From positions 928,001 through 992,000 of the forward strand of contig CAVUVW010000014.1 of NCBI GenBank assembly GCA_963745035.1: a stretch of 64,000 nucleotides of DNA, in the 5' to 3' direction. The notes beneath the pieces are model-generated. The model was not told the origin of the DNA, ran no database searches, and saw only the letters and a program-made list of their open reading frames with translations. The stretch is from an uncultured delta proteobacterium (GTDB lineage: Bacteria; Desulfobacterota; Binatia; UBA9968). Shown here piece after piece: positions 5,336-21,965 of this stretch; the stretch's first letter is position 1; every line of letters begins with the position of its first letter. Made by a program: the position numbers and the translations under genes.

Positions 5336-5368
5336 AACGGCGCTGCGTTCGACGAAATTGGCGGAAAC

Positions 5369-5405
5369 TGGAGGCGGCGAGCGGATTCGAACCGCTGCAT
5401 CGAGG
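5369..5405 (-). repeat. att core repeat (displaced 3' end of tRNA-Cys)
   Basis: TGGAGGCGGCGAGCGGATTCGAACCGCTGCATCGAGG is identical to 21886-21922 (37 bp). Confidence 0.97.
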
Positions 5406-5440
5406 CCAAAAGACTAAAATCAAGAAGTAGATACGGAGTG

Positions 5441-5470
5441 TGAAGGAGCCCGGATTTCCGGGCTTTTTCA
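5441..5470 (+). terminator. Intrinsic terminator just inside the left att
   Basis: AGCCCGGA-TT-TCCGGGCT hairpin followed by TTTTCATTTT. Confidence 0.75.
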
Positions 5471-5506
5471 TTTTGGGCGTACAGTGATACGGTTTGTTAC
5501 CCGTTT

Positions 5507-5532
5507 TTGGCACAAAACTGGAACGTTTTTTT
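5507..5532 (+). repeat. Putative integrase arm-type site (left)
   Basis: TTGGCACAAAACTGGAACGTTTTTTT matches 21810-21835 at 23/26 positions. Confidence 0.7.
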
Positions 5533-5626
5533 GGCATGCGCATGCAACATGACGTGGCACACCCCCCACCCCCCGTTTGGCGACTAGGGAACCTAGCCAA
5601 ACACGGCGCAAAAACAAAAAGGGCTC

Positions 5627-5890
5627 ATGGCAAAGCGGACTGACACCAAAATCGCGGTTCTCGTGCAGGTGATGGACGAGCTGGGCTTCGACCGGGAAAC
5701 CATCGCAACGGTTTCCAAGGTGCCGCAGCGGACAATCAGCGATATTGTGAACCGGCGCAGTTATTGGGCTACTGCGGGTGAGTTTAACGAGGTGCGGGAG
5801 ACGTACACGCTTTACCTGCGAAAGTGCCTCAAAGACGACGCTGCGGCGCTTGGGCACGCCGTTTTGAGGCGGCTCGAGGAATTAACGTGA
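5627..5890 (+). CDS. HTH-containing protein (frame stays open past the TGA to 5968)
   Basis: RETIATVSKVPQRTISDIVN is HTH-like. Confidence 0.6.
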   Translation: MAKRTDTKIAVLVQVMDELGFDRETIATVSKVPQRTISDIVNRRSYWATAGEFNEVRETYTLYLRKCLKDDAAALGHAVLRRLEELT

Positions 5891-5972
5891 GATGCGGACT
5901 TCACGACTACTTTAAACATCGCCAGTGCGGTAGCGACCCTAGCAGCAAGAATCGAAAGTGGGAGATAGCAAA

Positions 5973-6185
5973 ATGGAGACACAAGAAAAGTATCTCAGCA
6001 CCGGCCAGCTAATGGACTTTCTGGAAATCTCACGGAGCACGGTTTACCGGCTCATGGCCAGAGGGATGCCAAATATTATGGTCGGGACCGTTCACAGGTT
6101 TCCAAGAGAGCGAGTAATAGACTGGCTGGAGCGGAAATCTGATAAGCAGCGACTTACCGAGACACGTACAGCTACTAGAAACTAG
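5973..6185 (+). CDS. Excisionase-like HTH (HTH_17/MerR-type) protein
   Basis: YLSTGQLMDFLEISRSTVYRL...GMP...RF...VIDWL; GGGAGA RBS. Confidence 0.85.
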   Translation: METQEKYLSTGQLMDFLEISRSTVYRLMARGMPNIMVGTVHRFPRERVIDWLERKSDKQRLTETRTATRN

Positions 6186-6327
6186 CCCAAAAAGACTATA
6201 AGCGATACGAGCTGTGAAGCCCAAATTGACGGGTCATTCGCAAAGGTTCGCCGCTTTAAAAAAGGGGCCTCCGCTCCTCATTATGGTGCGAGTTACGGCG
6301 ACAACCAGCCGCAGGGATATAGCGCCA

Positions 6328-6534
6328 ATGACCGTTAACGCAGTTAAACGGCCATTCTCAGAGCTGTGCGAATCCGTTCTGCAAGGCACCCGTCAACATC
6401 AAGTCACCGCGCGGCAAGCATGGGCGCTACTGCTCCGATCACTGCCGATGGACGGCTACGCTTTGAAGCAGGCCAAGGCACTGCTCACAACCGCGTTGGG
6501 TCATCCGGTTCACGAACTGTTGGACGGACTATGA
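6328..6534 (+). CDS. Hypothetical protein
   Basis: Open helical-looking ORF; start uncertain. Confidence 0.4.
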   Translation: MTVNAVKRPFSELCESVLQGTRQHQVTARQAWALLLRSLPMDGYALKQAKALLTTALGHPVHELLDGL

Positions 6535-6723
6535 GATGCTTGAGTCACACTGACACAGACCTTCGCGGTGCAGGCGCAGGCATTCGAAACAAGGAACACC
6601 TGGCGCATGGAGCTGTTTCTCCTCTACTTCAAAATCTTGGGTTGGCCAGTGTGAGCAATTTATGCAGAAATGCCAGAAAGGCTCATCTCGAAGACGGCGG
6701 TAATTTCGTCTCTCCTGAACCAT
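6529..6723 (-). CDS. Small Cys-rich putative Zn-binding protein
   Basis: WHFCINCSHWP...CFEC. Confidence 0.6.
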   Translation of the reverse strand: MVQERRNYRRLRDEPFWHFCINCSHWPTQDFEVEEKQLHAPGVPCFECLRLHREGLCQCDSSIS

Positions 6724-6822
6724 CCCTTCAGAGTACCAAGATCGGGTAACACGCTATGAGCCGGCAGTCGTGGCAACTTGATCGAAAGCAATCAATGTTA
6801 TTGATCAGTACTCCCGTCGGTC

Positions 6823-7023
6823 TTATCCGAAAGGCAATCGGCCTAGCAAAACCACTTCGCTTTCGGAAGTCACGTAGACTGAGCCGCAGTATTCGCACAT
6901 CCAAGCGGTTTCTTCGAGTAGGACTATCGCCGCTCGCGTTTCATTGGAGAGCTGGGAAAATTCCTGAACTCCAAGTGGTCTCTGTGTTCCAATGTTACAC
7001 CTGCCGGGGCATCCCGTTTTCAC
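6823..7023 (-). CDS. Small putative Zn-ribbon protein
   Basis: CPGRC...CEYCGSVY; GGAGG upstream. Confidence 0.5.
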   Translation of the reverse strand: MKTGCPGRCNIGTQRPLGVQEFSQLSNETRAAIVLLEETAWMCEYCGSVYVTSESEVVLLGRLPFG

Positions 7024-7700
7024 TGGTGTACGCCTCCCGCAATTTGAGCGAAACGCAATCAGCGGGCCAAAAGACAGCTTACGCTAAGCAGTCGAATCTT
7101 CAGTTAGCATGCGAGATATGGCGAGCGGAGCAGGAAATTCCGTTCGGAAGGATCTGTTTATCGCCTCCAGATTGGTTCGATTAACACAGGAATTTAACGG
7201 CTAAAATGTTGAGTCGCTGAAGATTGATTGCATGAGGCACACGGGTCCGTGATTTTCTAGAGAACACAACATCTGCCTCGTTTGCTGGTCCAACTATGAC
7301 AAAACTGATCCAGCCGATCAGCTTCCAGGGAAATGTGGATCGACGTGGAACAGCTGCCCAGACGCAGAATAACTTGAGCACGGCGACACAGACTATCTGA
7401 TCAACCGGCAGCTCTAAATCTATCCGAATATGGTAGTGTCAGGGAAACAAAGCACCCAAACAGACCATACGCTGGCGATGCGTTGCGCCCGAAGCACGCG
7501 GTCTGTACCTCACACTAACTGCTACGCCTCCATCAGTGTAGCCGAGCCTGAGCCTGTCTCACCGTTGGAACAGCGCCGGCTATTAATCCCAAATCTCGGA
7601 GACTACATGGAAAAAAACAGGAGATTTATGAATAGGCTTGCCGTTCCCAGTGGCACGTTTGCTGCGTTGTTATGGGTAGTCCACTTCAATGTGAAACATT

Positions 7701-8210
7701 ATGGTTCACGCCAGCTCACTAAGAGTCATCGGTCAGGCATTAGAAGTGGCCGACGTTCGTGCTTTCGAACTTGAGAAACACGGCCAGTACTATGTCGTCT
7801 GGAGCGATTCACTGGCAAACGCAGACAAATGGATTTCTGACTGGGCGCTCACTGCCGATTGTTATGCCGGAGGCGCTCGGCAGGACAAGGCAAACTGCTC
7901 GTTGTGTTTCAGCCGGTCCGATATAATTCGTCTGGATCATAAGGGCAGTAAACGTAGGCGCAGCGAGTCATCATCGTATACCCAGGGCAACAAGCTTCCT
8001 CAATTGCTGCGCACCGTGGGCGAACACCTGGACCGTAATGCAGTTGGTGCGTTTCGTCTTTCCTGGACGCCGGAGGACGCAAGAGTTTCGATCCTACCTA
8101 CCAATGACTTAATGCTTGAAAAAATAACATTCACCCAAGAGAAGCTTCGGCAGCTCTCGTTGCATACTCGATTCCGACGATCAAAGCCGCACGGTCTTCG
8201 ATCCACGTAA
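7701..8210 (+). CDS. Hypothetical protein
   Basis: 169-aa ORF with possible internal repeat (LRVIGQALE / LRTVGEHLD). Confidence 0.65.
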   Translation: MVHASSLRVIGQALEVADVRAFELEKHGQYYVVWSDSLANADKWISDWALTADCYAGGARQDKANCSLCFSRSDIIRLDHKGSKRRRSESSSYTQGNKLPQLLRTVGEHLDRNAVGAFRLSWTPEDARVSILPTNDLMLEKITFTQEKLRQLSLHTRFRRSKPHGLRST

Positions 8211-8330
8211 GATGACCCTTGCGACACGCTACACCCGCAAGAAATTTGCGCGGATCGCAGTTACCCCACACCGCAATTCTATTTCGCCAAAAGGCAGGTT
8301 CAGGGGGTTATCGAACGATAAAGAGAACGC

Positions 8331-8381
8331 ACAGCAACACACATCGCGGACGTAAACAGCAACACACATCCGCGGACGTAA
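8331..8381. repeat. Tandem 25/26-bp duplication
   Basis: ACAGCAACACACATC(C)GCGGACGTAA twice, adjacent. Confidence 0.85.
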
Positions 8382-8439
8382 AAGGAGGACCTTGCTTTTA
8401 TACATATAGAAAACGCCGTACAGAAGAGGGTAAAAGACG

Positions 8440-8715
8440 ATGAAACTTGGCGAGCAACCTTGGTGGCCGAGAACATGGAGAAGTCCAACCTACGAAAATA
8501 TTCCGGCCGAGGAGATCAGAAAAGACGGCGTTTTTGTAGATTGCGACCTATTTCCGAACGAACTCATGATCCGGGTTAATTACAACGGCATGATTGTCAG
8601 CGGCCGGATCGCTAGTGGGAATTTGAATGTACCCGCAAATTTACAGCCGATTATGGACCTTCTTTCCGACTACACTGGAAGTTCAATGCAATGTATCGAG
8701 GATCTGGAATTTTGA
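8440..8715 (+). CDS. Unknown small-protein family, paralog B
   Basis: WWPRTW...YNG...GSSMQCIEDLEF resembles 10024-10374; GAGGG RBS. Confidence 0.65.
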   Translation: MKLGEQPWWPRTWRSPTYENIPAEEIRKDGVFVDCDLFPNELMIRVNYNGMIVSGRIASGNLNVPANLQPIMDLLSDYTGSSMQCIEDLEF

Positions 8716-8953
8716 ACTTACCTTTGCCGCCGCCCCGGAGCTCCCCACTTCCGGGGTATCGACACCCTATCAAGCGAACGCGCTCACCGGTTCCCAAGAT
8801 CAAAGTGTCACCGTCAACCACACGCTGAACAAACTCGAGGTCGGGTGCCGACAATCCCGGATCGGCTGGATTGAGGAATGCTGCGAGGATCGCGACGACG
8901 ATAAACGCCGGAAGCGCATATCTCCACTTCACAAGTTGATCCTTCACTCGCAT
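8700..8953 (-). pseudogene. Truncated thermonuclease (SNase-like)
   Basis: Signal peptide, then VQRVVDGDTL...VRLIG, frameshift into VDTPE; the rest of the domain is absent. Confidence 0.7.
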
Positions 8954-8982
8954 GGTGGTCGATGCAGGTCAGTTCATTCACT

Positions 8983-9219
8983 TCAGTACGAGATAGTTCG
9001 CCCGCTCACCGTTTGGTCTTTAGCTTCGTCGGCCATTTTGAAGGCGTCACCCGATTTGCCGCTGAGCACAATCCAAGCGAACCAGTAGTCACATGCCACA
9101 CACTGCCCTTTGAGCGCATGGACACGTCGCTTAGAAGGCGACTCACACATCGTGAGGCCGAGATAACCACGGCAGCGTGGGCAGGACCTGTGGAAGTAGC
9201 GTGCCATGGGCTCAGGCAT
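8983..9219 (-). CDS. Small Zn-ribbon protein
   Basis: CPRC...CVAC. Confidence 0.6.
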   Translation of the reverse strand: MPEPMARYFHRSCPRCRGYLGLTMCESPSKRRVHALKGQCVACDYWFAWIVLSGKSGDAFKMADEAKDQTVSGRTISY

Positions 9220-9508
9220 AGAGGTAAGCTGTCCAAGCGCTGACCAAGGCAGTCGTGATCACAAGCCAGAGAAATGATCGACGCACGGTCATATCCACTC
9301 TCCTAAGCGTAAGCGATCACGCCCAAAGCGCAGACGGAAATAAGCCGACCGCGAACCAAAAAAGTGAATTACCCAGTGTCATGGTACACCTCCTGAAGAG
9401 GCGGAGATATACCGTTATTTATCGGGGAACGTCAATAAGCTACTTGGAATGCGTCCACCGGTGTGACTACGGAGCGGCAACTAATCACTAATGGCAATCT
9501 CTTTTCTG

Positions 9509-9538
9509 TAGACAAGCCACCGCCTAACAGCCTAAACT
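9509..9538 (+). promoter_or_regulatory. Putative sigma70 promoter of candidate sRNA
   Basis: TAGACA-N18-TAAACT. Confidence 0.5.
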
Positions 9539-9544
9539 CTGCGG

Positions 9545-9628
9545 GTTCCAGGGGCGGGGGCGTTTTCCCAGTGGTGACTGGGTCTGAAACGTCGGAAGGG
9601 GGGCGACCGAAAGGCTCGCCCCTTTTTT
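9545..9628 (+). ncRNA. Candidate ~85-nt small RNA
   Basis: Promoter, hairpin CCCAGT-GGTG-ACTGGG in an extended stem, then GAAA-loop terminator GGGGCGACCGAAAGGCTCGCCCC-T6. Confidence 0.5.
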
Positions 9629-10023
9629 GTTTGACTGAACGTTGACCGGACCCGAGCGATGAGGTTATTTCCGCTTACGTTTCTCTTGCTCGATCATTGA
9701 ATCCCTGATCGCTTTTCCATGGACGACGGCACGTATTGAGTCCGCTTTGGTATCTTTCACGGCCTCACGTAGCGCCGGGATTGCTCAATTAGTTTTCGGC
9801 TCTGTTCCAACAGTTCTAGAAAGGATTGAGGCACGGCAGGACTCCTTCCCCTATTGGTTTGGGTTCGGGCTCCCGGTCCTGCGGCCCCGGTGGGATAAGC
9901 TCAAACGGTTATTGGAATCAGACCCTAGGCTTAGTCACGCGCAAGTGTCAATGAAAAGCCGAAATGTCGGAAACCCGCCAAGTCGAGTCGCGCCGTAGGT
10001 GTTGTAACGTATCGCTTGGGAGG

Positions 10024-10374
10024 TTAGAGCGTATGCGACAAATCCAAGTCGCCAATGTCTTTGATGGAGCGGCCAACGTTTGCCTGCAAGATCTTAAAAA
10101 TTTGTGAGCAGAAGCGGCGGTCATCAAACTGCATCAAGCCCATATATCGAGAGCCGTTATAATGAATGAACAGCAAAATCTTGTTATCCAAGAGTTGACG
10201 GATCATCGTGCGTTCGAGGGTCCCAATTTCGCCGGTCGGCAAGTCGTTAACGTCGAGGCGCGTCGTTGTCCATCTCGGCGGCCAAGTCAGGACACCGCTT
10301 TTGCGGGTCATTCGCGGGTGATCACGAAGCTGCACAGCCCGAATAGACATGGTTTGGCCAGTATCGGAGGCCAT
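10024..10374 (-). CDS. Unknown small-protein family, paralog A
   Basis: LRDHP...WPPRW...YNG...GRSIKDIGDLDL. Confidence 0.75.
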   Translation of the reverse strand: MASDTGQTMSIRAVQLRDHPRMTRKSGVLTWPPRWTTTRLDVNDLPTGEIGTLERTMIRQLLDNKILLFIHYNGSRYMGLMQFDDRRFCSQIFKILQANVGRSIKDIGDLDLSHTL

Positions 10375-10534
10375 AGTAACACGTCAGCAGTGCCGCATCA
10401 GCGAATTATTGCGGCCACTGACTCCAACACTCAGGTCTAGTTAAGGTGGTACTACTAAAGTTGAAGCGCGGGTGCGCTACCTGCTGGTTACTGAAAATAT
10501 TTTCAGTCCATGAAAAACCTTTTATACTTCGGGA

Positions 10535-10963
10535 ATGCGCGTTCTCGATGCTCTCCGTATTCTCGAAGCCGCAACGGTCGAGTGTAAGAAGCGCACGATC
10601 GATACGCCAGAGGTTTGCCAGGCGCTCGATCTGTTAGAACCATACTGCCGCCCGGATTGCATTAAAGGTTTCCGGAAGCACCTAGAGCCTCATGCAGTCG
10701 CCAACACTCTTGAGTGGGGTGCTGCGCTGGAGGGACAACAGCAAAATCTGAGAGTCGAGTTTGCCTGCATTTACCGCTGCGTCCGCGCGCTGCTTATCCG
10801 GCAGATCGGCCGGCTGGGCACTCGCTATATCCGCTCGGGGAAGGACCCGGCGATCATGACGGAGATTGAAAGATTGAAGGCCGAGCTCGTAAAGATGCTG
10901 CCGGAATGGAACTACTTCAGGCGTACGCGCGATCCCACGCTGCCGAAGCGAAGATCATCTTGA
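10535..10963 (+). CDS. Hypothetical protein
   Basis: 142-aa ORF, no recognised motif. Confidence 0.55.
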   Translation: MRVLDALRILEAATVECKKRTIDTPEVCQALDLLEPYCRPDCIKGFRKHLEPHAVANTLEWGAALEGQQQNLRVEFACIYRCVRALLIRQIGRLGTRYIRSGKDPAIMTEIERLKAELVKMLPEWNYFRRTRDPTLPKRRSS

Positions 10964-11280
10964 CTTGCGAGGCGTAGTTTTTTCCGCCTGGAGCTCCACG
11001 GTGATTTCGTCGATAACCTGTTAACAATCGGACCATGATCTTCGCCAGACAATTCAAGCGTCGCAACTCTGCCGCTGGTCCGAGAAACGAGCATGAGCCA
11101 AAGGCCGTCCTCAGATATACACAGTTTCGCGTCACGGTTGGGAGTGGGGACGGATGCCAGCGCCGCATCGACCGATGCGCGAATCTCTTCCGCAGAGAGG
11201 CCGGACACGTCGATCTCTTCAGCAGCTCGCGCTTTTGTGCGTTTATGCCGCTTGAAGTTGACTTTTGTAATCTTTGCCAT
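10912..11280 (-). CDS. Hypothetical basic protein
   Basis: 122-aa ORF with GAGG RBS; 3' end overlaps the convergent gene. Confidence 0.5.
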   Translation of the reverse strand: MAKITKVNFKRHKRTKARAAEEIDVSGLSAEEIRASVDAALASVPTPNRDAKLCISEDGLWLMLVSRTSGRVATLELSGEDHGPIVNRLSTKSPWSSRRKKLRLASQDDLRFGSVGSRVRLK

Positions 11281-11430
11281 TCCTCGCCTCAGCTATGAAG
11301 GGAGCAATCGTGTACCTCAACAAAGAATGAATCTGGGTCATTCCGAATCCGTGCGGCTTTAATGCAGTTTGGGTTTTGACAGTAAATACCCAGGGCCCTG
11401 GGCAACTGTCACTCGTTTAAGTCATCGCAT

Positions 11431-11649
11431 ATGACAAGCCCGGCCGTCTTCGACCGCATCCACGGCAGGAACGCGTTCTCCGACCTGCGGACACTGCTCA
11501 AGAATCCAGAGTTGAGCTATCGAGATATCGGGAAGGAGCTAGGCCTAACAAAGCAGCGGATCGCACAACTTGACCAGCGGCGGCTATCTCACGAAAACAA
11601 ACAAATTCATGAAGCAGCGGAACTTCGAGAGTTTTACCAGGTGGCGTGA
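11431..11649 (+). CDS. Sigma70 region-4-like HTH protein (possibly a fragment)
   Basis: LSYRDIGKELGLTKQRIAQL. Confidence 0.55.
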   Translation: MTSPAVFDRIHGRNAFSDLRTLLKNPELSYRDIGKELGLTKQRIAQLDQRRLSHENKQIHEAAELREFYQVA

Positions 11650-11724
11650 TCTTGAAGCGTCTGTTAAAATCTTTGACCGTCGCTTGGCGGGGAATTTCCC
11701 GTTCACTCCCGCAGATGAGAAAAA

Positions 11725-11892
11725 TTACAGCTTCTTCAGCAAGCGATAGAATCGCGTAATTAGCCAGGCGCACCCCATGGCGATGGCGAGCTTGACCAAA
11801 TGGCTCTCGCCAATCGACATCCTGAAAGAGAACGCCAGCCAGCCGATGGCTAGGATGATGAGAACGAAAGCCGTCCTGCCGCGGGTGCTCAT
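11725..11892 (-). CDS. 55-aa putative two-TM microprotein coupled to the orphan TadE C-terminus
   Basis: Manual translation MSTRGRTAFVLIILAIGWLAFSFRMSIGESHLVKLAIAMGCAWLITRFYRLLKKL; ATGA start/stop overlap. Confidence 0.55.
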   Translation of the reverse strand: MSTRGRTAFVLIILAIGWLAFSFRMSIGESHLVKLAIAMGCAWLITRFYRLLKKL

Positions 11893-11984
11893 GCGGCGGT
11901 GCAAAGGGTGTTGTCGGTGTTGAAGGGCTGAGCCATATAGCGCATTTGCGCGGTGCGCGTGATCGACTGCTTGGACGTAGGGTC
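11889..11984 (-). pseudogene. Orphan TadE C-terminal fragment
   Basis: ITRTAQMRYMAQPFNTDNTLCTAA aligns with the TadE1 end VTRTSRMRYEFQP...TLCTAA; no prepilin N-terminus upstream. Confidence 0.7.
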
Positions 11985-12101
11985 CCTGGTCCCTAGCTTT
12001 GCCTGTGCCGGAAACTTAACCAATTCGTAGGATTTTCGTCGGTTGTTGCGTTCCCCTGCGCCCACGGCCAAGAAATAACTCTACTTCCGGCAGCTCAGCT
12101 T

Positions 12102-12254
12102 TCACCGACGCGCCCATCTGCGCGTGAGCATCATCAGCACGGCGCCGATCGCACACGCCGCCAGCGTATCCACCGGGCCAAAAAAGGGCTTCAGATCCGC
12201 CACCAGGTAAATCAAGCCGCCCGTGACGACAAGGAAGGAAACGCGCTTCAGCAT
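12102..12254 (-). CDS. 50-aa putative two-TM microprotein coupled to TadE2
   Basis: Manual translation MLKRVSFLVVTGGLIYLVADLKPFFGPVDTLAACAIGAVLMMLTRRWARR; ATGCTGA overlap with the TadE2 stop. Confidence 0.55.
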   Translation of the reverse strand: MLKRVSFLVVTGGLIYLVADLKPFFGPVDTLAACAIGAVLMMLTRRWARR

Positions 12255-12706
12255 TGGTGTTCGTAGCGCATCTTGACGGAACGCGTCAGCGGAACCGAAG
12301 GATCGATGTTGACGCCAATGAACCTGAGTATCCTGTAGAAAAACGGGTAATAGGTCTGCGTCACGCTGACCTGGACTTCACGGTCGCATGTGGCCACGGC
12401 GCCGGAATTGACGAGCGCGATTTGCGCACCCCCGGCCATGAGCCCAGATGCCACGCGGTTCGAAATCCGCTGCAGAATGTCCGACCCGCTGGAGCATGGG
12501 TATGTGCAGGAGACATTCGCCGTCGATAGCGTCGGATCAGCGGCGGCAATTCGCGCACCTTCACGGGCGGCGTTCGTGCCGATCTGCGAGGTGTAGAACA
12601 TCATGCCGAAGTCGGCGGGTATCCAGGCGACAATGACCAGCAGGATGAAGCATAGGGTGAACTCTACTAGGGCTTGGCCTTTTTGGTTCTTCATAATGTT
12701 TTTCAT
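12248..12706 (-). CDS. tadE: TadE/TadG-family minor pilin (TadE2)
   Basis: Prepilin motif KG|QALVEF, TM, AAREGARIAA, C-terminal MRYE. Confidence 0.9.
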   Translation of the reverse strand: MKNIMKNQKGQALVEFTLCFILLVIVAWIPADFGMMFYTSQIGTNAAREGARIAAADPTLSTANVSCTYPCSSGSDILQRISNRVASGLMAGGAQIALVNSGAVATCDREVQVSVTQTYYPFFYRILRFIGVNIDPSVPLTRSVKMRYEHQC

Positions 12707-12717
12707 GCTTCCGCTCC

Positions 12718-13173
12718 TCATGCGGCCGTACACAGGGTAGCCGCGCTGCCTCCGTTGCCGTCGGGCTGGAACTCGTATCGCATGCGAGAGGTGCGAGTAA
12801 CGCTTGTGTCGTTGGGTACGGTGAGCCCAAATAGACTTGCCATTTTGTACCAGGCGTAAGTGTAGGTGTACGTCACCGACGCTTCCACGTATTGCATGCA
12901 ACCCGCGGGGCTGGTGCGGCGGATCACTGTGGCCACGGCTGAGCTTCGAACGTAGGCGGGAGTCTCGGCGACGACTTCAGCCTGCAACGCGGTCGCGTCG
13001 AACGCTGCGCCATCTTTGTTGGCTGCTTTCCGCGCCACGTCTCTGACGGCGTTCTGGGCCAACGATGCTGTCCATAGCGCTATTCCGAAATCGACGGGCA
13101 CGTACAGCGCTACGAGCAAGAGCGGCGTGATCAGCGCCATTTCTACGAGCGATTGGCCTTTTTGGTTCTTCAT
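12718..13173 (-). CDS. tadE: TadE/TadG-family minor pilin (TadE1)
   Basis: KG|QSLVEMAL, TM, NAVRDVARKAA, MRYE; GAGGAG RBS. Confidence 0.9.
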   Translation of the reverse strand: MKNQKGQSLVEMALITPLLLVALYVPVDFGIALWTASLAQNAVRDVARKAANKDGAAFDATALQAEVVAETPAYVRSSAVATVIRRTSPAGCMQYVEASVTYTYTYAWYKMASLFGLTVPNDTSVTRTSRMRYEFQPDGNGGSAATLCTAA

Positions 13174-13214
13174 AATATCAGTTTCCACTCCTCGTCCTCT
13201 TTGCAGAGGGGCTT

Positions 13215-13352
13215 TTACTGCCCCTTCATTCTCCCAGTAACCATCGGCGTCAGGACGGCCGCAAGGAGCGCCGCAGCCGTCAAGCTCCACATGTGGTAGG
13301 GCATGATTATCACGAACGCAAATACGCACACGCCCACGAGGCGGTAAGGCAT
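13215..13352 (-). CDS. 45-aa hydrophobic microprotein coupled to the TadG-like gene
   Basis: Manual translation MPYRLVGVCVFAFVIIMPYHMWSLTAAALLAAVLTPMVTGRMKGQ; TGATG overlap. Confidence 0.5.
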   Translation of the reverse strand: MPYRLVGVCVFAFVIIMPYHMWSLTAAALLAAVLTPMVTGRMKGQ

Positions 13353-14397
13353 CAATACCCCTTGATCGGTTCCCGCACGAGACGGTGTTTAAAACAAAGG
13401 CTTGAGGTCGAATTGAGCGATTGCCCGCACTGTACGTCGGCTTGAATATATTTAGGGTTCCCCGTCTTGTCGACGGCCGTTACTCTAATCTTTGCAAAAT
13501 CCACAACTCCGGTCGGGTTGTCGGGAGCGCAATTCCCTCCACCCGACAGCACCGGTATGAAAAACCATTGGTTAACGTTACTAGGCGTCTTCAGAAAAAA
13601 ATCTTCCGCCTCGCCCAAAACAGTATTCACTTGACCCCTGTTCTGGCAGATCTGTGAGCCAATGGTCAGGTCTCCAGTTATCCCCGAGCCCGAACAGGTC
13701 GAAGCGGTAGTAAATCCCGCCTTGATGTCAGGCGCACCGGAAGAACAATCAAAAAATGTCGTCCAGCAAGCGTTCTCATTCGACCATCTTGTTGGTCAGG
13801 GTGCTGCATCTGGATCTTCACGTTCGTTTGCAGAGGGTATTCTGGAGGGGTTCCGACCTTGGTGCCGCATTTCGTTTCCCACAATGCGATCGGAATGGAC
13901 GGTCGTGCTTGGATTGTTGCTACCGCGCTAACGCTGACGGGGTTACTGCTAGAGACCGATGAGCCCATAAGCCTGAGGAGAGGGATTAAGAACGATGGTG
14001 GTTGAAGTGGGTCGTTGTTCGCGGTTTCCATCGCCACCCTGACGCCATTTGCGGCGTCGCGCGTTACGCCATAAGTAATGCTGTTGGACGTATAATCGTA
14101 GCTCACATAGCTGACATTTGTGGGGACGATCGGGTTTTGATTGCTGGTGATGTAATTGTTTTGCGAATTGAACGCTATTGCGCGATTCGTGACCGGCGTA
14201 TCGCTGAATGTTCTTTGGGCCTCGGGTAAACCACTGACCGCCGCCAGAGCCGCGGCGTCAATGGCGGATTGGCCCGTGTTGCGGGTGTACGTCATGAAGC
14301 CTGTGTCCAGACCGAAGCCCACCATGACCATTAGCAAGACGACCATCAGGGTTATAAAGACCAGGACTGAGCCGCGTTCATTTTTTATGCTCTTCAT
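13352..14397 (-). CDS. tadG: TadG-like pilus tip protein (frameshifted near 13790)
   Basis: ERG|SVLVF, TM, GLDTG, QSAIDAAALAAV; GGAGG RBS; C-terminal part is in another frame. Confidence 0.85.
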
Positions 14398-14644
14398 AGA
14401 GGCCTCCACAGGGCAGATATTGTTGTCCAAATTGCGAAATCGTGCAAGAGCCGTAACCTTTGCCATATTGCCAATAAATGACAAACATCATCAAATCTTC
14501 ACGCATCCTGCCTCGCCGGGTTTGTACTCAGAATCCAACATTAGTTTTCATCAGCGCCGAGTGGCCAATTCCCTATCAAACTTGGCGGGACCTTGTTCTC
14601 TCGCAATCCGGCAAAGCTCGATTGCCTCAATTGACCATGGTCTC

Positions 14645-14932
14645 TTAGATGATCAGGTCGCCAAGTTCTCTGAGGGTAATGCCACGGTTCGCGTTGACGG
14701 CAGCGAGGGTTTTCTTCAGGGCAGCGGCCGGCAGGATCAGTAACGCGGTGTCGCGCCCACCATTTCTTTTACGGATTTCCAGCGTGATGTGCACCTTGGC
14801 ACGCGGGGTGATAGTCGCTTTGAGAACGACGTCCTCAATGCTCCAATCCTGGGGTAGCCAAATTTTGCTCTTATCTCTCAGATTTATTCTGGCGTCGATT
14901 CTCCTAGTCGCTCGCATACTGGCAAAGATCAC
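14645..14932 (-). CDS. Unknown small-protein family, paralog C (divergent)
   Basis: LRDK...WLPQDW...ANRGITLRELGDLII. Confidence 0.55.
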   Translation of the reverse strand: MIFASMRATRRIDARINLRDKSKIWLPQDWSIEDVVLKATITPRAKVHITLEIRKRNGGRDTALLILPAAALKKTLAAVNANRGITLRELGDLII

Positions 14933-15569
14933 CGCACGGCGGATACCCCAAGAATCGTTCCCTCGGACAAGCGAGAGTTAGGGCAGCGACTACAGATAAT
15001 CTGCTGTCCCGGCCCGGACATTTAGCTTAGGAGTAAAATCGAGATGCGCGTCCGCAAGCTGTCTAGAGCAAGCAACTCGCCAACGGATGAGGGTGCGACG
15101 ACCCCTACGAGTTCCAAGAGTCTCCGATGATGCGGGGCTTTGCTGCCCGATGAGAAGAATGCTCCGAAAGATACGACAGAGCGATGGCCAAGACGAACGC
15201 GCTAAACCGCCGCGGTTTCAATCACGCCGGTTCAAAGGCCGCCATAGCGATCGTGAACATTCGATGGTTTGTGTTCGCTTGCCGCCATGACGAAATCGCG
15301 CGGGATCTATCCGACAGACGTCGCAGCGGTGATCAGGAAGCTCAAACAGAAAGGTGTCCCGGTACGACCCTATCTTGTGGCGCAACCCTCCTAAAACAAT
15401 CGGCTCCGCAAATCGCAAACAAAGGTAAGAGGCCCTTCGAAGAAGCGGGCATGCTCAATGCGCTGCAGGTCGTGAACGGGGGCTATAATATTTTAAAGGT
15501 GCGCGCGATTCTCAATTACTATCGCAAGCTGTACCGGCAGGAGGGGAGGCACTAAGGGGGTTAGTTATT

Positions 15570-16398
15570 TCACGACGATCCTCCCCGCGCTTTTTTACGC
15601 CCGCCGCGTTCCGCCTTCGGCTGCGGCTTGGCTTTGTCCAGGCTCTGCTTGAGCGCCGCTAGAATATCGATCACCTGTCCCCGCGCCGGCGCCCTTGGCG
15701 GTACCGTGATCTCCCGGCCTTGGGATTTCTCCTCGATCATCTCCAGCACTTGGGCTCGGTAGACATCGCTGTAGTTTTCCGGCTCGAACTCCGGGTTGGA
15801 TAATTTCTCGACCAGTCCGGTGGCCAGCTCGAACTCCTCGGGCGTGAGCCGCGCGCCGTCGCTCTTGGCAATCGCGCCGAAGTCGCGCACCTCGTTGGCG
15901 TAAAACAACTGCTGCATGATCAGACCGCGCTGCGCGGAGCGGATCAGCACCAGCTTTTCCTTGTCGTGGCTCACCATTTCGGCGAGCGCGCCGCGGCCGA
16001 CTTCCGCCATGGCGTCGGCGAGGAGACGATAGGCCTTCTCTCCGCCCGCGGCCGGCGCGAGGTAGTAGCTCCGCTCGAAAAAAACCGGATCGATCTTCTC
16101 CGTGGGGATGAACTCGCGCAGCTCGATGTTGCTGTTGGCCTCGAGATCGCCAAGGGTTCAGTACGTGCGCGTCACCGACGCCGAGCTCGAATCGCTGGAA
16201 GCCGTAGCCACGCACCAGCTCGTCGCGCTCGACGGTCTTGTTACAGACCGGACAGAGGAACTGGTTGCGGACGCGGGCGCCGCAGACAGCGTGCAGCAGA
16301 TGGAAGCGGACGGTCAGATCTTTAACCGCGGAGTGGATTTCGACGGGGATCGCGACCAAACCGAATGAGAGGATACCGCGAGCGATAGGTCTGGCCAT
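15570..16398 (-). pseudogene. ku: Ku NHEJ protein disrupted by a 61-bp internal inversion
   Basis: ARPIARGILSFGLVAIPV, YYLAP, VIDILAALKQSL; segment 16143-16203 encodes Ku residues on the opposite strand. Confidence 0.9.
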
Positions 16399-16495
16399 CC
16401 GTACAGCGTAACATGGCGGGGGCCGGCGCAGAGGCTGTCATTGGCTTACAGGAGGACCTTCTTCTACGGCGCGATATTATTACGCTGGATCACTT

Positions 16496-16945
16496 TCATT
16501 TTTGCCGTGACTTTTGTGATTTTTTTCGTTCGCTTTCAGTCATGTAGGTCCCGTGGCATATCTTTGCACCCGCGAACTTAGGGCTAATGATTCGTGTAAT
16601 AAGGGTGGCCGCATGCTCAGTCTGATCTATTACGTAATAATCGGTCCTCCGCTCATTTGTGAAAACTAGCAGCGGTGGCGTTTCAATTTCAATCTTGTAC
16701 TTATCCGAACTTCGGTTAGGCGCGCCCTTTCCCAAAAAGTCAAATTCGCAGTGGACTGTTTGTGAATGTCGAGTACAGCTTGTCAAGGAACCGTCTGTGT
16801 CTATAGTCTTTAGGCTCTCATCTGCTAACACGAGGTAACTCACGGTCATGATGCATTTGTAAAAGTGGAGATAAAAGTCGGCCGCAAAACCGACCTGCGG
16901 GATGACCAACACCAAGGGAAACCAAAACCAGGTTCCAATCTTCAT
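16496..16945 (-). CDS. Putative exported protein
   Basis: N-terminal signal peptide (VGFA-A), Cys residues; overlaps the upstream gene stop. Confidence 0.6.
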   Translation of the reverse strand: MKIGTWFWFPLVLVIPQVGFAADFYLHFYKCIMTVSYLVLADESLKTIDTDGSLTSCTRHSQTVHCEFDFLGKGAPNRSSDKYKIEIETPPLLVFTNERRTDYYVIDQTEHAATLITRIISPKFAGAKICHGTYMTESERKKSQKSRQK

Positions 16946-17718
16946 AAATGACCTGAGTCCTTTCCGGAGACATTGATAACAAGCTCTTTGCTACTCCAAT
17001 ATGCTCTTGTTCTTGCTCTATGTTTTGCCTTGGCCTTGTGTCGTCGTCTGATTTTCAGCGCGTTTTTATGCCGAGCTAGATACTTTGCGGTCCTCTTTTT
17101 TTGAGAGCATTTCGGCGAACAATATTCCTGACGCTTCACCGCTGCAAAGATCCGTTTGCAGACGAGGCAGGTGCGTAGCCGATCACCTGCCTTTTGCAAT
17201 AAATCTGTAACACTCATAAAAAACCTATCCCGCAGGGCTCTGCTGCGGTAACCTCTGCTGACCCTGCCATTACGGAATCGGAAAAGTGCGACCGACGGTG
17301 CTAGTCTAGAGATCCGCCAGGTGCGCGGAGCATCTCCTTTCATAAGCGTAGACATTCCTCGTTTCAGTTCCCTTTGAAGCTTTTTAAGTGTTCTTTTTGC
17401 AGGCGGATGCTCTAGATCGGCGATCGAGACTAGATCTGAAGCATGAGTCCAAAACGGTGGCATGGAAAAAACGATGACTTGGTCTCCCAAATCACGCCAT
17501 CCAATCGTGAGCCCTGCCCCTCTTGGAGGCAACTCAGAAATATTTACCATCATGAACTCGAGCAACCAGCCCAATGGATTCAGCATTGAGTCCTGGCAAG
17601 CCATTACGTAGCGGTCGCTGAGAACCTCAACCGGAATCTCTTTAGTCGACTTCTTCATTCTCATCTTGGAGCGTGTAACAGTTATCAGCGCAGAACTGCT
17701 CTTTTGCCGTAGCAACAT
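16942..17718 (-). CDS. CGNR-like Zn-finger regulator
   Basis: RLRTCLVCKRIF...QEYCSPKC followed by a basic tail. Confidence 0.7.
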   Translation of the reverse strand: MLLRQKSSSALITVTRSKMRMKKSTKEIPVEVLSDRYVMACQDSMLNPLGWLLEFMMVNISELPPRGAGLTIGWRDLGDQVIVFSMPPFWTHASDLVSIADLEHPPAKRTLKKLQRELKRGMSTLMKGDAPRTWRISRLAPSVALFRFRNGRVSRGYRSRALRDRFFMSVTDLLQKAGDRLRTCLVCKRIFAAVKRQEYCSPKCSQKKRTAKYLARHKNALKIRRRHKAKAKHRARTRAYWSSKELVINVSGKDSGHL

Positions 17719-17990
17719 AAATGTTGATTATAACCGTATACACGACACGCAGACATAAGTAGCTTAATTGGGAAGCATGTTCAACGCTCTTCTCCTATAC
17801 GGGTGGAACACGCTCGGTTAAGCGGTGGAAACGCAAAGCACAAACGGAAGGTCGGGATGAGTAAGCTTGACCAGTTTTGTGAGACGGTGCGATCCGCAGG
17901 ATTTGAACCACCGAAAATAATCGTCGCAGACGGAGAGCTACAGCGGTTTGCCAGTAGCGGTAAACGCGCCGTGCAGATTGGGGGCGCTCC

Positions 17991-20031
17991 GTGAGTTTCG
18001 CGCCTCAGCATCTTGAAGACTTGCGACGTTCAGGACTGAGTGACGCGACTATTCAATTGATGGGTGTAGTGTCCCTCCCACCTGGCGAGATCAACAAATT
18101 GTCCGCCGGCGGGCTCTCCGGTGTCGAATCGGTCCTAGAATTTCCATATCCAAAAATCTCGGACTTTTCTCGCTATAAGCTGTTCCCTGCTCAAGGGGAC
18201 ATGAAATATTTTCAAAGAAAAGACAGCGGCAATCATCTTTATATACTTTCGCCGGTTCATGCGGTGCTAACTGATTTCCGAGAAAAGCTCTATTTTGTCG
18301 AGGGCGAAAAGAAAGCGGCTGCGGCGGTACAGCGTGGTCTCCATGCCGTGGGTTTTTCAGGTGTCTGGAATTGGAAAAACAAAGATAGCTGGAAGGGTAT
18401 CGACGAGCTTCAGTTAATCCCCTTTGCTGATCGTGACGTTGAGATAATCCCGGACTCCGACACCTGGACACGGGACGATCTGCAACGCGCCGTCTATGCC
18501 TTCGGCAAATATCTCGAGTCTCGCGGTGCTAGGGCATTTGTCACACTTATCCCTCCAAACGCTTCTGGGAAGTTGGCCTTGATGATTTTTTCCTCGTCCA
18601 TAGTGACGAAGATTTTCGGCAGCTCAAGAGACTCGATCTCAAACATCCAACGCTGGCCCAACACAAACAATGGTACGACGGCTGGAAAGAGAAGGCCGAA
18701 GGCCAGACTTACGACGGACTGCAGGGCAAGCCGCTATTCCTTCGCGAGGTCGAGCTGTATGCAGAGGCGGTAGAAGGCTGCGAACTGCTGATCGAGTTGT
18801 GCCGAGCCATCCGCCGGTATGTCGTCGCCGACAATGCGGATATTGTCGCTATGGCCTTGTGGTGTGTCCATGCCCATGGGATCGACGCCTTCGGTATTTC
18901 GCCATTTCTAAACCTGTCGTCACCGGAGAAGGGTTGCGGCAAGTCGACTACATTGACGGCCATATCCTATTTGCTGCCGCGTCCACTCTTGTCGGCGAGC
19001 GTCAGCCCCGCATCGATCTTTCGGGCGATCGAGCTTTACAAGCCGTCATTTCTGATCGACGAAGCCGACACCTTTGAAAACTTAAATGAGGATCTTCGCG
19101 GACTGCTTAACGCCTCGCACCTCCGTGCAACGGCGCAGGCTATCCGGATAGTCGGCGACAACCATGAGCCACGGACGTTTTCGACGTGGTGTCCCAAGGC
19201 GATCTCGCTAATCGGGCGCCTGCCGGCAACTCTCGAAGATCGATCGCTCGTTGTCGAAATGAAGCGGCGCCGGAACGATGAGGTGTGCGAGCGGTTTCGG
19301 CAATAGATCCGCATCCAGAGTTGGAACTGCTCGGCCAAAAAGCGGCGCGCTGGGTAAAAGACAATTTCAACCAACTCAAGCAGGCGAGGCCGACGATGGA
19401 CGGAATCGACAACCGTCTTCTTGACAACTGGCTCCCTGTGCTGGCGATCGCCGATATTGCCCGCGGCGACTGGCCGAAATGGGTAAGGATAGCCGCAAGG
19501 CGATTTGTCGCCAAAGCTGCTGACCCGACGTCGGTCAAGGTGGAATTGCTGATCGACATGGCCGAGATTATGGGCCACGAAGATCGGATGTTTAGCGAGG
19601 ATATGGTTATCGCGCTACATGCAATGGCCGATCGGCCGTGGCCGACATTTAGTCGCGGAAAGCCCATCACTCAGGTTCACATGGGCAGGATGCTCCACGG
19701 TTTCGGCATCAGGTCGAAAAACATCAGGATCAAGGATCGGCAAGCAAAGGGCTACGAGGCAACGGAGATCGGGACGGCTTTGAGCAGGTATGCACCTTCT
19801 GGCGACGCGTCCCAAGCGTCCCAAAAAATAAATGACAAGGAGATTGCTGAGTTACAGGCTATTTTTGGGACGAATCAATCCGTCCCAGAAGAAGCCGAGC
19901 CATCCCAAGCCAGATGGCCACGACGAACAGGGCTTCGATTGGATAAACGGGGAGCGGAAAGACGAGACATTGATGAGCAATGGACGCGAATTAAAGCCGA
20001 GCACGCAGCCAGACGAGCAAACGACAACTAA
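17991..20031 (+). CDS. Primase/replication protein (DUF3854-like toprim plus DUF3631-like domain), two frameshifts
   Basis: HLEDLRRSGL, VEGEKKA, GVWNW, PDSD, GLDDF; SPEKGCGKST, LIDEAD, TLEDRS; shifts near 18570 and 19300. Confidence 0.8.
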
Positions 20032-20109
20032 GGGTATCAACGCCGCCGAGGTGCTACGGATATTTCCCGGCGCGAGGGTAATCAAGGAAGGGGCGGAGAG
20101 CTAGAGTCG

Positions 20110-20421
20110 ATGAACGACCCGATTAGCTCTTTGGCCGAAGCGCTAGCGGCGATAATCAAACCGATCGTCAAAGAGGCCGTCCGAGAGGCGTTGAGTCTCA
20201 ATTCCCGTAGTGGCGCGGAATCGACGCCAGCAGATAAGTCTTTTCTGACGATCAAACAAGCGGCGGCAACCTCCGGGCTTGGCGCTTCCACCATCCGCCT
20301 AGCGATTCGCCGCAGAAATTTGCGAGCGCAGAAGGTTGGCCGGCGGGTGCTGCTCAAAAAAACTGATCTGGAACATTTCCTGGAGGCGAACCCGATTGAG
20401 GCGATAGCAGAGCGGTATTGA
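20110..20421 (+). CDS. Excisionase-like HTH_17 protein
   Basis: FLTIKQAA...STIRLAIRR...LRAQKVGRRVLL. Confidence 0.85.
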   Translation: MNDPISSLAEALAAIIKPIVKEAVREALSLNSRSGAESTPADKSFLTIKQAAATSGLGASTIRLAIRRRNLRAQKVGRRVLLKKTDLEHFLEANPIEAIAERY

Positions 20422-20457
20422 CATGAATAGGTCATTATGTCATAATGACATTATGAC
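20418..20457 (+). promoter_or_regulatory. Sigma70 promoter with overlapping repeated operator
   Basis: TTGACA-N17-CATAAT; GTCATTAT/GTCATAAT/GACATTAT 8-bp repeats. Confidence 0.7.
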
Positions 20458-20671
20458 TAAGAAGGAGTTTAAAGCGATTCGAGGACGGATCGAATTTAGT
20501 CAGGCGAGGTTAGCCAAGGAACTTGGAGTGACATTGCGAACGGTCGCTAGATGGGAACGCGGCGAGTTTCCTATACCGCGTGTCGCGGAACTGGCCCTGC
20601 GGAATTTGGTCCGAGAGTCACTAACGGAAACAATTCCGTGGGAAAAGCTCAAGAAAGACATGAAGCTGTAA
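20453..20671 (+). CDS. XRE-family HTH regulator
   Basis: FSQARLAKELGVTLRTVARWERG. Confidence 0.88.
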   Translation: MTKKEFKAIRGRIEFSQARLAKELGVTLRTVARWERGEFPIPRVAELALRNLVRESLTETIPWEKLKKDMKL

Positions 20672-20684
20672 GGAGCTTTGAATC

Positions 20685-21965
20685 ATGGCCAAAGGTATAT
20701 ACGAGCGCAAAGGCAATAACGGCGACGTGACTTATTACATCCGCTATCAGGTGGACGGTACGGACATAAAAGAGCGAGTGGGGAGAAGGTCGCGAGGTTT
20801 TACGCGGGAACTAGCGAAGGATGCATTGAACTCACGATTAGGCGACATAGCGCAAGGGCATTTTAACTTGGAGAAGGTGCGAAAGCCGGTGCCATTTTCT
20901 AAGTTGGCGGAAAAGTATCGCGAGTTTGCCGGCGGATACAAGAGAGGGTGGGGGACGGAAAAGTATATCGTTGAAGAGTTTGCGTCACTCTTCGGCGACA
21001 CTCCGCTGGCGCAGATCACAACGTGGCAGATCGAGAAGTGGAAAGCGGAAGAGGGGAAGCGACTAAACCCGGTTACCGTGAATCGCCGTTTGACAGTGAT
21101 CAAGCATATGTTCAAGAAGGCCGTCGAGTGGGATCTTGTTAAGAGTAACCCGGCAACGTCGGTCAAAAGATTTTCAGTGACAAGCGAGCGCACAAGATTT
21201 CTGACGGAGCAGGAAATTAAAGCTTTGCTTGAGGACTGTGAGAAAATGGTCACATCACCCTGGCTTTTGCCCTTGGTGAAACTGGCTTTGAATACCGGGA
21301 TGAGACAAGGCGAATTGCTAAAGCTCAAATGGGAGAACGTGGACTTAGAGCGGGAGTCGATTACGATTATTCAGAGCAAAACGCTACGGCGAAAGACCAT
21401 CGCCATCAATCAGCAAGCGCGAGAGGCATTGAACTGGCTGCAAGAGAATCGTTACGGTGAGCTTCTCTTCATGTGGCCGTGGGGCGATCCGATCGGTAAG
21501 GTTACAGTCTACGATGCCTTTAAAAAAGCCTGTAGTGCGGCAAAGATCGACGATTTCCGTTTCCATGACCTTCGGCATACCTTCGCGTCTCATCTCGTTA
21601 TGGCGGGCGTGGATTTGGTCACAGTGAAGGAGTTACTCGGCCATAAGACAATCAACATGACAAACCGCTACACTCACCTTGCCCAAGAGCACAAAGCGCA
21701 AGCGGTGGCGAAGCTCGAAGATCGTTACAAGGTGGCGGAGAGTGGAACGCAAAGCGCAACCGTGTCACCGGAAATGAAAGAGGCAATCAACGCGGTTTTC
21801 ACGCCGAAGTTGGAACAAAACCGGAACATTTTTTTAGTGAGAAGAGGGCGAGGACTTGGAATCTTGAGTGATTTCAACGACGGAATGGAGGCGGCGAGCG
21901 GATTCGAACCGCTGCATCGAGGTTTTGCAGACCTCTCCCTTAACCACTTGGGTACGCCGCCTTGA
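20685..21965 (+). CDS. int: Tyrosine integrase, reading through att and antisense across the tRNA
   Basis: TGMRQGEL, FHDLRHTFAS, LLGHK, RYTH catalytic residues; AGGAG RBS. Confidence 0.96.
   Translation: MAKGIYERKGNNGDVTYYIRYQVDGTDIKERVGRRSRGFTRELAKDALNSRLGDIAQGHFNLEKVRKPVPFSKLAEKYREFAGGYKRGWGTEKYIVEEFASLFGDTPLAQITTWQIEKWKAEEGKRLNPVTVNRRLTVIKHMFKKAVEWDLVKSNPATSVKRFSVTSERTRFLTEQEIKALLEDCEKMVTSPWLLPLVKLALNTGMRQGELLKLKWENVDLERESITIIQSKTLRRKTIAINQQAREALNWLQENRYGELLFMWPWGDPIGKVTVYDAFKKACSAAKIDDFRFHDLRHTFASHLVMAGVDLVTVKELLGHKTINMTNRYTHLAQEHKAQAVAKLEDRYKVAESGTQSATVSPEMKEAINAVFTPKLEQNRNIFLVRRGRGLGILSDFNDGMEAASGFEPLHRGFADLSLNHLGTPP
21810..21835 (+). repeat. Putative integrase arm-type site (right)
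   Basis: TTGGAACAAAACCGGAACATTTTTTT, near-copy of 5507-5532. Confidence 0.7.
21886..21961 (-). tRNA. tRNA-Cys (GCA)
   Basis: Acceptor stem GGCGGCG/CGCCGCC, anticodon arm GAGGT-CTGCAAA-ACCTC, TTCGAAT loop, encoded CCA. Confidence 0.97.

Follow-up and report, generated by a model that had tools for sequence, protein, structure and literature searches.

An accessory Tad minor-pilin cassette with unexplained small genes on an integrative island of an uncultured Binatia bacterium

The window analysed here, a stretch of 64,000 nucleotides (nt) from an uncultured delta proteobacterium (GTDB lineage Bacteria; Desulfobacterota; Binatia; UBA9968; GenBank assembly GCA_963745035.1, contig CAVUVW010000014.1, positions 928,001 to 992,000), carries on its minus strand a group of minor-pilin genes of the Tad type (11725..14397), among which three short open reading frames (ORFs) are interleaved. 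This cassette is taken, with a probability of roughly 0.55, to be an accessory Tad tip operon, TadG > TadE1 > TadE2, carried as the cargo of a 16.5-kb tRNA-Cys island. The canonical tad locus, the widespread colonization island, encodes the minor pilins TadE, TadF and TadG, the counterparts of which in Caulobacter are named CpaJ/K/L.

The minor-pilin genes

On the minus strand the cassette reads TadG > s46 > TadE1 > TadE2 > s50 > TadE remnant > s59, and the coordinates, lengths and overlaps of these genes given in an initial annotation of this DNA, made from the sequence alone, were all confirmed. The large TadG-like minor pilin (13352..14397), whose ATG is preceded by GGAGG 7 nt upstream, matches PF13400 at residues 9-54 (E 4e-8; 33.8 bits, cut-off 22.3), which places it among proteins with the Tad N-terminal domain. 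TadE1 (151 amino acids, aa; 12718..13173) and TadE2 (152 aa; 12248..12706) are members of the TadE family PF07811, with 47.1 bits (E 2.5e-12) and 42.5 bits (E 7e-11), respectively, against a gathering cut-off of 22.9. Reading of the sequences reveals in both a class-III leader, the G/XXXXE motif and a hydrophobic helix; the leader of TadE1, MKNQKG, is followed by QSLVE (KG|QSLVEMAL), and that of TadE2 ends in KG before QALVEF (KG|QALVEFTL). The cleavage motifs of the cassette pilins (KG|QSLVE, KG|QALVEF and RG|SVLVF) agree with those of the canonical copies, and the Pfam families PF07811 and PF13400 and the type of leader are likewise those of the canonical tad minor pilins. In an alignment of the TadE2 family (A5), the positions invariant in 14 of 14 rows, the window protein included, run from G10, Q11, V14, E15 and F16 to M146, R147 and E149.

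A direct repeat of 35 nt (91% identical) is found at 12663-12697 and 13142-13176, at the starts of TadE2 and TadE1, and the likeness of the two copies suggests gene conversion or a common translation-initiation region; the two proteins are only ~32% identical overall. A scan of 11300-15000 for promoters and terminators returned nothing beyond shuffled controls, and an Rfam scan found a tRNA alone.

In the assembly TadG is split, one base being missing beside plus-strand position 13783. Public contigs aligned to the cassette came from four sequencing runs, of which two spanned the break, and both of these (X1 and X5) have an extra base that restores a single TadG frame of ~348 aa. A 1688-nt contig from one study equals the window except for one extra C behind 13783, and a 256-nt contig from a second study has the same extra base at that site. 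Residues 1-204 of frame A align to residues 1-196 of an intact TadG of 340 aa from a congener (locus L007), whose residues 199-340 are matched by frame B (143 aa); TadG is one gene, collinear with full-length TadG. The genome itself is a metagenome-assembled genome (MAG) of 28 contigs and 7.43 Mb, with a completeness of 92.6% and a contamination of 5.8%, and all three of its TadG genes are frameshifted (13783 in the window, 12704-13737 in locus L001 and 11178-12260 in locus L002). The Ku gene and the DUF3854/DUF3631 primase-like genes of the island are also in pieces (window 15570-16398 and 17991-20031). Because independent contigs show the missing TadG base and other genes are split as well, indel errors in the MAG are probable and its apparent pseudogenes are unreliable. 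The short ORFs are present in independent contigs, s46 exactly, s50 without indels and s59 exactly over the covered part, 11725-11848.

The orphan TadE C-terminus reported in the initial annotation is confirmed, and its profile match shows it to be a true remnant of a third, E1-type gene. It comprises approximately the last 40 codons (11889..12011, minus strand) within a 60-aa ORF (12071..11889) and matches a hidden Markov model (HMM), built by the author from 13 E1-type proteins, only at positions 118-157 of 164 (E 9e-8). The region upstream of it (12000-12101) has a negative coding log-likelihood ratio. The remnant is in frame with s50, two stop codons standing between them, and the E1 HMM finds neither a TadE remnant nor a TadE N-terminus inside s50.

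The island and its relatives in the genome

An integrative island of 16.5 kb (5362..21922) carries the cassette and displays all of the expected hallmarks, namely direct repeats, a tRNA-Cys gene, an integrase and atypical GC content; the first three of these bear out the earlier description of the cassette as mobile. The island is bounded by direct repeats of 44 nt (5362-5405 and 21881-21922; 95% identical), the right copy of which lies inside the tRNA-Cys gene (21886..21961, minus strand), and its tyrosine integrase (20685..21965) matches PF00589 with an E value of 2e-41. Its further contents are replication-type genes of the DUF3854/DUF3631 kind, Ku, a helix-turn-helix protein and many unknown genes. 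The GC content of the island is 0.51-0.56, compared with ~0.58-0.65 in its flanks, and housekeeping genes (CoaE, ferredoxin-type) stand outside the repeats. Integron-type gene cassettes were dropped from consideration without any search; the island recombinase matches the phage-integrase Pfam family.

A sister island at 84-97 kb of contig C14 holds an E2-E1-G trio of its own (C14:88-90 kb), a paralogue of s59 and four gene families in common with the window island, these being homologues of 7701-8210, 8983-9219 and 10535-10963 together with an integrase fragment. Pieces of the window island (6322-11572 and 15426-16070) are repeated at 72-96% nt identity on contigs C26, C19, C13, C20 and C21 and at C14:1013-1017 kb, so that this genome contains related islands forming a mosaic family. 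The Tad cassette has no nucleotide-level copy in the genome except for a 68% match to the TadG of C21.

Small two-helix ORFs are met elsewhere in this island family. Three of them fall within 2 kb of the sister island (C14:84695-86688; L002 6696-8689), one being the s59 paralogue, and identical two-helix ORFs of 57 aa are present at C14:1017306-1017479 and C19:283719-283892, beside stretches 87-96% nt-identical to the island. Islands of this family seem often to carry small membrane proteins. A family of soluble proteins of ~170 aa with no match in Pfam or PHROGs is encoded in the window at 7701-8210 (plus strand), 3.5 kb from the cassette, and again at L002 12262-12789 and 16709-17203, L035 6549-7016 and L037 9665-10144. 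It adjoins orphan cassettes in three loci and may belong to the Tad cassette module.

The Tad machine of the host and a possible mode of action

With tad proteins of the host as tblastn queries, no Flp pilin, prepilin peptidase, secretin or ATPase was found in the window, in agreement with the initial annotation, which had also called for a full tad locus to be sought elsewhere in the genome and had regarded a host without Tad machinery as fatal to its proposal. Such a locus is present on contig C21, so that this objection falls away; it comprises Flp, TadV, CpaB/RcpC, a secretin, TadZ, CpaF, TadB, TadC, DUF192, E2, E1 and TadG, and its Flp is a protein of 64 aa with the motif G|QGLVEY. The window pilins are ~47-57% identical to the E2, E1 and TadG of this canonical locus, TadE1 being 47% identical to its E1-type gene. 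Unlike the canonical locus, the window has no flp, tadV, rcpCA or tadZABC nearby, its gene order is G>E1>E2 rather than E2>E1>G, and three microprotein genes and a remnant are interleaved in it. A second Flp paralogue, 58% identical to the C21 Flp, is encoded far from the tad machinery at C14:748843-749028.

The closest described counterpart is the Tad-like pilus of Myxococcus, where genetics has identified four KilL/M/N (TadE/F/G-like) clusters as interchangeable tips of a single pilus (PMC12075869). Three of the four clusters lie outside the machinery loci, and one has its own Flp adapter of 59 aa, KilO (PMC12075869). The likeness between Kil Tip1-Tip4 of M. xanthus and the window cassette is manifold: three-gene TadE/TadF/TadG-like clusters, several paralogous copies per genome, most copies placed away from the machinery, and a large TadG/KilN subunit with a variable C-terminal part (PMC12075869). 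The small protein of 59 aa in one Kil tip cluster is helical (PMC12075869). The host genome, with one Tad machine and three minor-pilin trios, shows the same separation of trios from the machine that marks the Kil Tip type. The window cluster, a putative tip, differs in sitting on an integrative island bounded by att-like repeats.

On the accessory-tip reading, TadG, TadE1 and TadE2 would be substrates of the host prepilin peptidase TadV, the same peptidase being expected to act on them because their leader and cleavage motifs match those of the canonical trio. The processed pilins would then assemble on the single Tad machine of the host, that of C21, and the cassette trio would serve as an alternative priming or tip complex for the host Flp filament, in the manner of the KilL/M/N tips of Myxococcus. 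The window copy would represent a divergent and rearranged member of a machinery-less E2>E1>G lineage found repeatedly in island-like settings within the genus, and the short ORFs would encode lineage-restricted two-helix proteins of the inner membrane, situated at rearrangement junctions; they probably share a transcript with the pilin genes and are probably coupled to them in translation.

Related cassettes in the genus

Of 24 congeners sampled, 11 yielded homologues of TadE1, as against 0 of 16 genomes from other families of the same order. Fourteen loci were compared (L001, L002 and L034-L045), three of them canonical and 11 without tad machinery in the flanks covered. Orphan E2>E1>G cassettes are represented in the genus by L002, L035, L037-L045 and L047, the neighbours of which include homologues of the 7701-8210 gene (L002, L035 and L037), Ku (L038 and L042) and a tRNA within 3 kb (L038, L040 and L041). 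They thus resemble the window cassette in having homologous pilins, no machinery and the same kinds of neighbour, and they differ from it in their compactness, no short ORFs being interleaved in them. Genes are arranged as E2>E1>G in every locus that reaches all three genes, and the gaps between genes are tens of bases where ORFs are listed. Six orphan cassettes form a clade in the E2 tree (support 90/93), outside of which the window E2 falls. The N-terminal part of the window TadG has no close relative in 185,579 species genomes, with just two weak matches. TadE-domain gene pairs of a distant type, barely matching the E2, E1 and G proteins considered here, are present in loci L046 and L048-L051 (genomes G007, G014 and G003).

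The short ORFs as genes

The three short ORFs are all located at the ends of pilin genes or of the remnant. The ATG of s46 (45 aa; 13215..13352, minus strand) takes its A from the stop codon of TadG (TGATG); that of s50 (50 aa; 12102..12254, minus strand) lies 4 nt ahead of the TadE2 stop (ATGCTGA); and that of s59 (55 aa; 11725..11892, minus strand) overlaps the stop of the remnant (ATGA). Each has two hydrophobic windows of 15 residues and a basic C-terminus, as had been noted earlier and is confirmed here. ATG-initiated ORFs of 40-65 aa with at least two hydrophobic windows are rare in the genome (56 of 14,291 in six frames), and of the 113 that are found in 7.43 Mb when lengths of 40-80 aa are admitted, three lie together here in a span of 1.63 kb; the author's own Poisson estimate for this cluster of three, from the genome counts, is ~2.5e-6. 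Their GC content at third codon positions is 0.78 (s46), 0.78 (s50) and 0.80 (s59), compared with 0.71-0.72 for TadE1 and TadE2. A codon model trained on 1,471 long ORFs of the same genome gives log-likelihood ratios per codon of +0.285, +0.395 and +0.253 for s46, s50 and s59, respectively, with the own frame the best of six in each case. All three are called as genes in protein collections, s50 as P0002 and s46 in two other assemblies, where P0003 is identical and P0004 agrees in 43 of 45 residues by the author's count (98% over 96% of the query in the search listing). The short ORFs are not chance and are coding-like, and they look like real genes.

Searches for relatives of these proteins returned little. 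In Pfam (E<=0.01), NCBIfam and PHROGs all three gave just sub-threshold matches to membrane segments; s46 has no relatives besides near-identical strain variants, s50 none in the protein collections besides itself, and the best ESM Atlas score for s50, 0.80, is in the chance range. None of the pattern matches obtained in metagenome contigs was confirmed for alignment A3 (0 of 367) or A4 (0 of 120), and in viral contigs A3 found nothing and TadE2 one match of 20 residues, which is of no value. Profile comparison detected no mutual homology among s46, s50 and s59, and s46 and s50 are unrelated to the s59 family.

The s59 protein is a true member of a very small family, as its profile matches, a common core and a collinear paralogue attest. 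The paralogue in the sister island, the only one in this genome, is 37% identical over 52 aa (31 bits) and collinear over its full length, and a profile made from the two sequences, searched against 1.84 billion representatives, recovers seven proteins at E<=1e-3; the family includes five remote members (P0006-P0010). Members aligned in A2 have a common start and ~54 aa, begin with MT/S and conserve a core of FRM...E/DG...GAWLI, a pattern that s59 fits. An AlphaFold2 model predicts a helical hairpin (helices 3-26 and 31-54; mean predicted local distance difference test score 72.5). The profile finds no member at E<=0.01 in any of 30 other genomes of the genus, the lone match (E 0.058, two internal stops) being due to chance, and in 400 other genomes of the phylum it gives only matches at E>=1e-3. 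Ten of 11 such phylum matches are segments of longer proteins, since they lie in open frames of 160-1066 aa; the remaining one is an 81-aa frame with an internal stop.

Partners, adapters or modulators

The initial annotation had proposed that a cognate small membrane protein follows each pilin variant, in a layout like that of toxin C-termini and their immunity proteins, and that the element re-tips the host pilus, with phage exclusion, kin recognition and contact-dependent interaction as possible roles. Every short ORF does overlap, at its start, the stop codon of the preceding gene, the three stand out from chance and resemble coding sequence, and a Myxococcus tip cluster with its own 59-aa adapter, KilO, indicates that tip-specific small partners exist in principle (PMC12075869). 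Against this, a short two-helix ORF between or overlapping pilin genes was found in 0 of 13 related loci (L001 and L034-L045, both strands); locus L037 has one unrelated ORF of 37 aa ~350 nt downstream of TadG, by the author's estimate. The s59 paralogue of the sister island is uncoupled from pilins, lying ~1.4 kb from the cassette on the opposite strand, and the E1 HMM finds no TadE remnant upstream of it.

One of the supposed pairs consists of the 40-codon pseudogene remnant and s59. The ATGA between them is GCCGCATGA again, the word found at the end of TadE1, where a possible start of TadE2 further upstream overlaps it; the overlap of remnant and s59 is therefore inherited from the E1/E2 junction and is no sign of design. 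The three short ORFs, moreover, have no detectable common homology and bear neither an Flp leader and cleavage motif nor a match to PF04964. A cognate partner for each pilin variant is thus supported neither by the related loci nor by the uncoupled paralogue, and the comparison with toxin and immunity genes, which would call for a small gene conserved beside the variable pilin gene and co-varying with it across loci, is not borne out. Lack of conservation of the short ORFs, which the initial annotation had named as telling against itself, is largely what was found for their pairing with pilins, while the ORFs themselves remain gene-like. On these comparisons the short ORFs are not a conserved partner class of minor pilins; they lie precisely at the points where this cassette is rearranged. 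The partner arrangement is very improbable, and phage exclusion and kin recognition are speculative roles.

That the short ORFs are divergent Flp-type adapter pilins resembling KilO, coupling an island tip to the host Flp filament, is close to refuted. Their size of 45-55 aa and their place in a tip cluster recall KilO (PMC12075869), but none of them qualifies as an Flp/Fap pilin: no leader followed by G/XXXXE[YF] is present, where the host Flp has a clear G|QGLVEY; there are two hydrophobic segments with basic ends and not one; glycine 5 of s59 is not conserved in its family; and PF04964 is unmatched by them, as it is anywhere in the genome. Being two-helix hairpins with no prepilin cleavage motif, the window microproteins are, unlike KilO, not Flp adapters.

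Small inner-membrane inhibitors of type IV pili are encoded by phages, and by analogy the microproteins might be island modulators of the host Tad machine that, for example by binding TadB or TadC, block or bias assembly, favouring the island tip or excluding phages. The clustering of two-helix proteins on this island and its sister, and their position in an operon with pilus genes, would fit such a role. The proposal is, however, purely analogical, the proteins show no homology to known inhibitor families in PHROGs and NCBIfam, and they are not conserved across the related cassettes; it is improbable.

Natural variants and expression

DNA of the cassette occurs in soil, rhizosphere and winery metagenomes of nine studies, as estimated from the share of sequence words, mostly in small shares. 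A winery contig covering 11884-12493 differs from the window at 33 positions (30 listed) and contains 11 gap letters. Within s50 it shows six listed changes in 153 nt, which amount to S6P, T30S (two adjacent changes), A33V and two synonymous changes, with no indel, whereas the 239 nt of TadE2 covered (12255-12493) show 22 changes spread over all codon positions. The segment least changed is s50, and all indels (net length -7) fall in the non-coding stretch 12055-12091 between s50 and the remnant. Drawn from a single contig, this is weak evidence that s50 may be under constraint and that the C-terminal part of TadE2 may be evolving fast, and the TadE2 variation may reflect diversifying selection or mosaic recombination. 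Contigs from RNA libraries cover 12485-12632 in TadE2 (0 differences) and 12911-13193 in TadE1 (two differences), which gives weak support for expression, since carry-over of DNA is possible.

Points that weigh against an accessory tip

Several observations weigh against the accessory-tip reading. Assembly indels could have made fine details of the ORFs wrong, no Shine-Dalgarno sequence precedes s50 or s59, and the RNA-library contigs leave s46 and s59 uncovered and reach s50 in only 32 nt, within a record whose sequence departs from the window on both sides. The loading of the pilins on the C21 machine, like their tip role and the co-translation of the short ORFs, is inferred. Across the genus TadE domains are present in 21 of 31 genomes and the Tad-specific RcpC in only 11 of 31, and genome G046, which is 96% complete, has the orphan cassette L047 and neither an RcpC nor a CpaF homologue with the queries used; on account of G046, a resident Tad machine may not be needed for cassettes to be kept. 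No other locus has the scrambled gene order of the window cassette, G>E1>E2>remnant, and the window E2 is the longest branch of the E2 tree (0.87), so that decay or neofunctionalisation is possible.

A decaying, scrambled relic of the E2>E1>G module, in which the short ORFs are young orphans or junction fill-in with no role in a pilus, is accordingly an alternative to be weighed. The unique order, the TadE remnant and the long E2 branch favour it, as do the lack of relatives of two of the three short ORFs and the 35-nt repeat at the E1 and E2 starts, which suggests recombination between both genes. On the other side, the frames of TadG, E1 and E2 are intact, the residues invariant across the 14 E2 rows are kept, and the short ORFs have a strong third-position GC and codon signal. 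Several studies also have the cassette, at high identity, in their metagenomes, and s50 is less changed than TadE2 in the winery contig. Decay is considered rather unlikely, and the cassette is still read as an accessory tip operon.

Novelty and significance

Orphan tip clusters are already published (PMC12075869); what is new here is that the cluster sits on an island, that its gene order is scrambled and includes a TadE remnant, and that three microprotein genes are interspersed in it. No description of orphan Tad tip clusters as cargo of integrative islands was found in a literature survey of incomplete coverage. For the present, the locus amounts to an accessory minor-pilin cassette, well annotated, in which the small genes are unexplained, and it is not a demonstrated new system. 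A wider proposal, in which such islands spread alternative Tad tips among strains and the microproteins act with the tip as assembly or adapter factors or as platform-exclusion factors, so that binding by the host pilus, and perhaps its use by phages, is reprogrammed, is decidedly doubtful.

With these genes the little-charted set of small membrane proteins on mobile elements gains three candidates, of which one belongs to a conserved family. If tips encoded by islands do load onto the resident machine, horizontal transfer could alter adhesion or receptor specificity without moving a machine of 10 genes, and the idea of an adaptable tip would extend from the chromosome of a predator to the mobile elements of soil bacteria.

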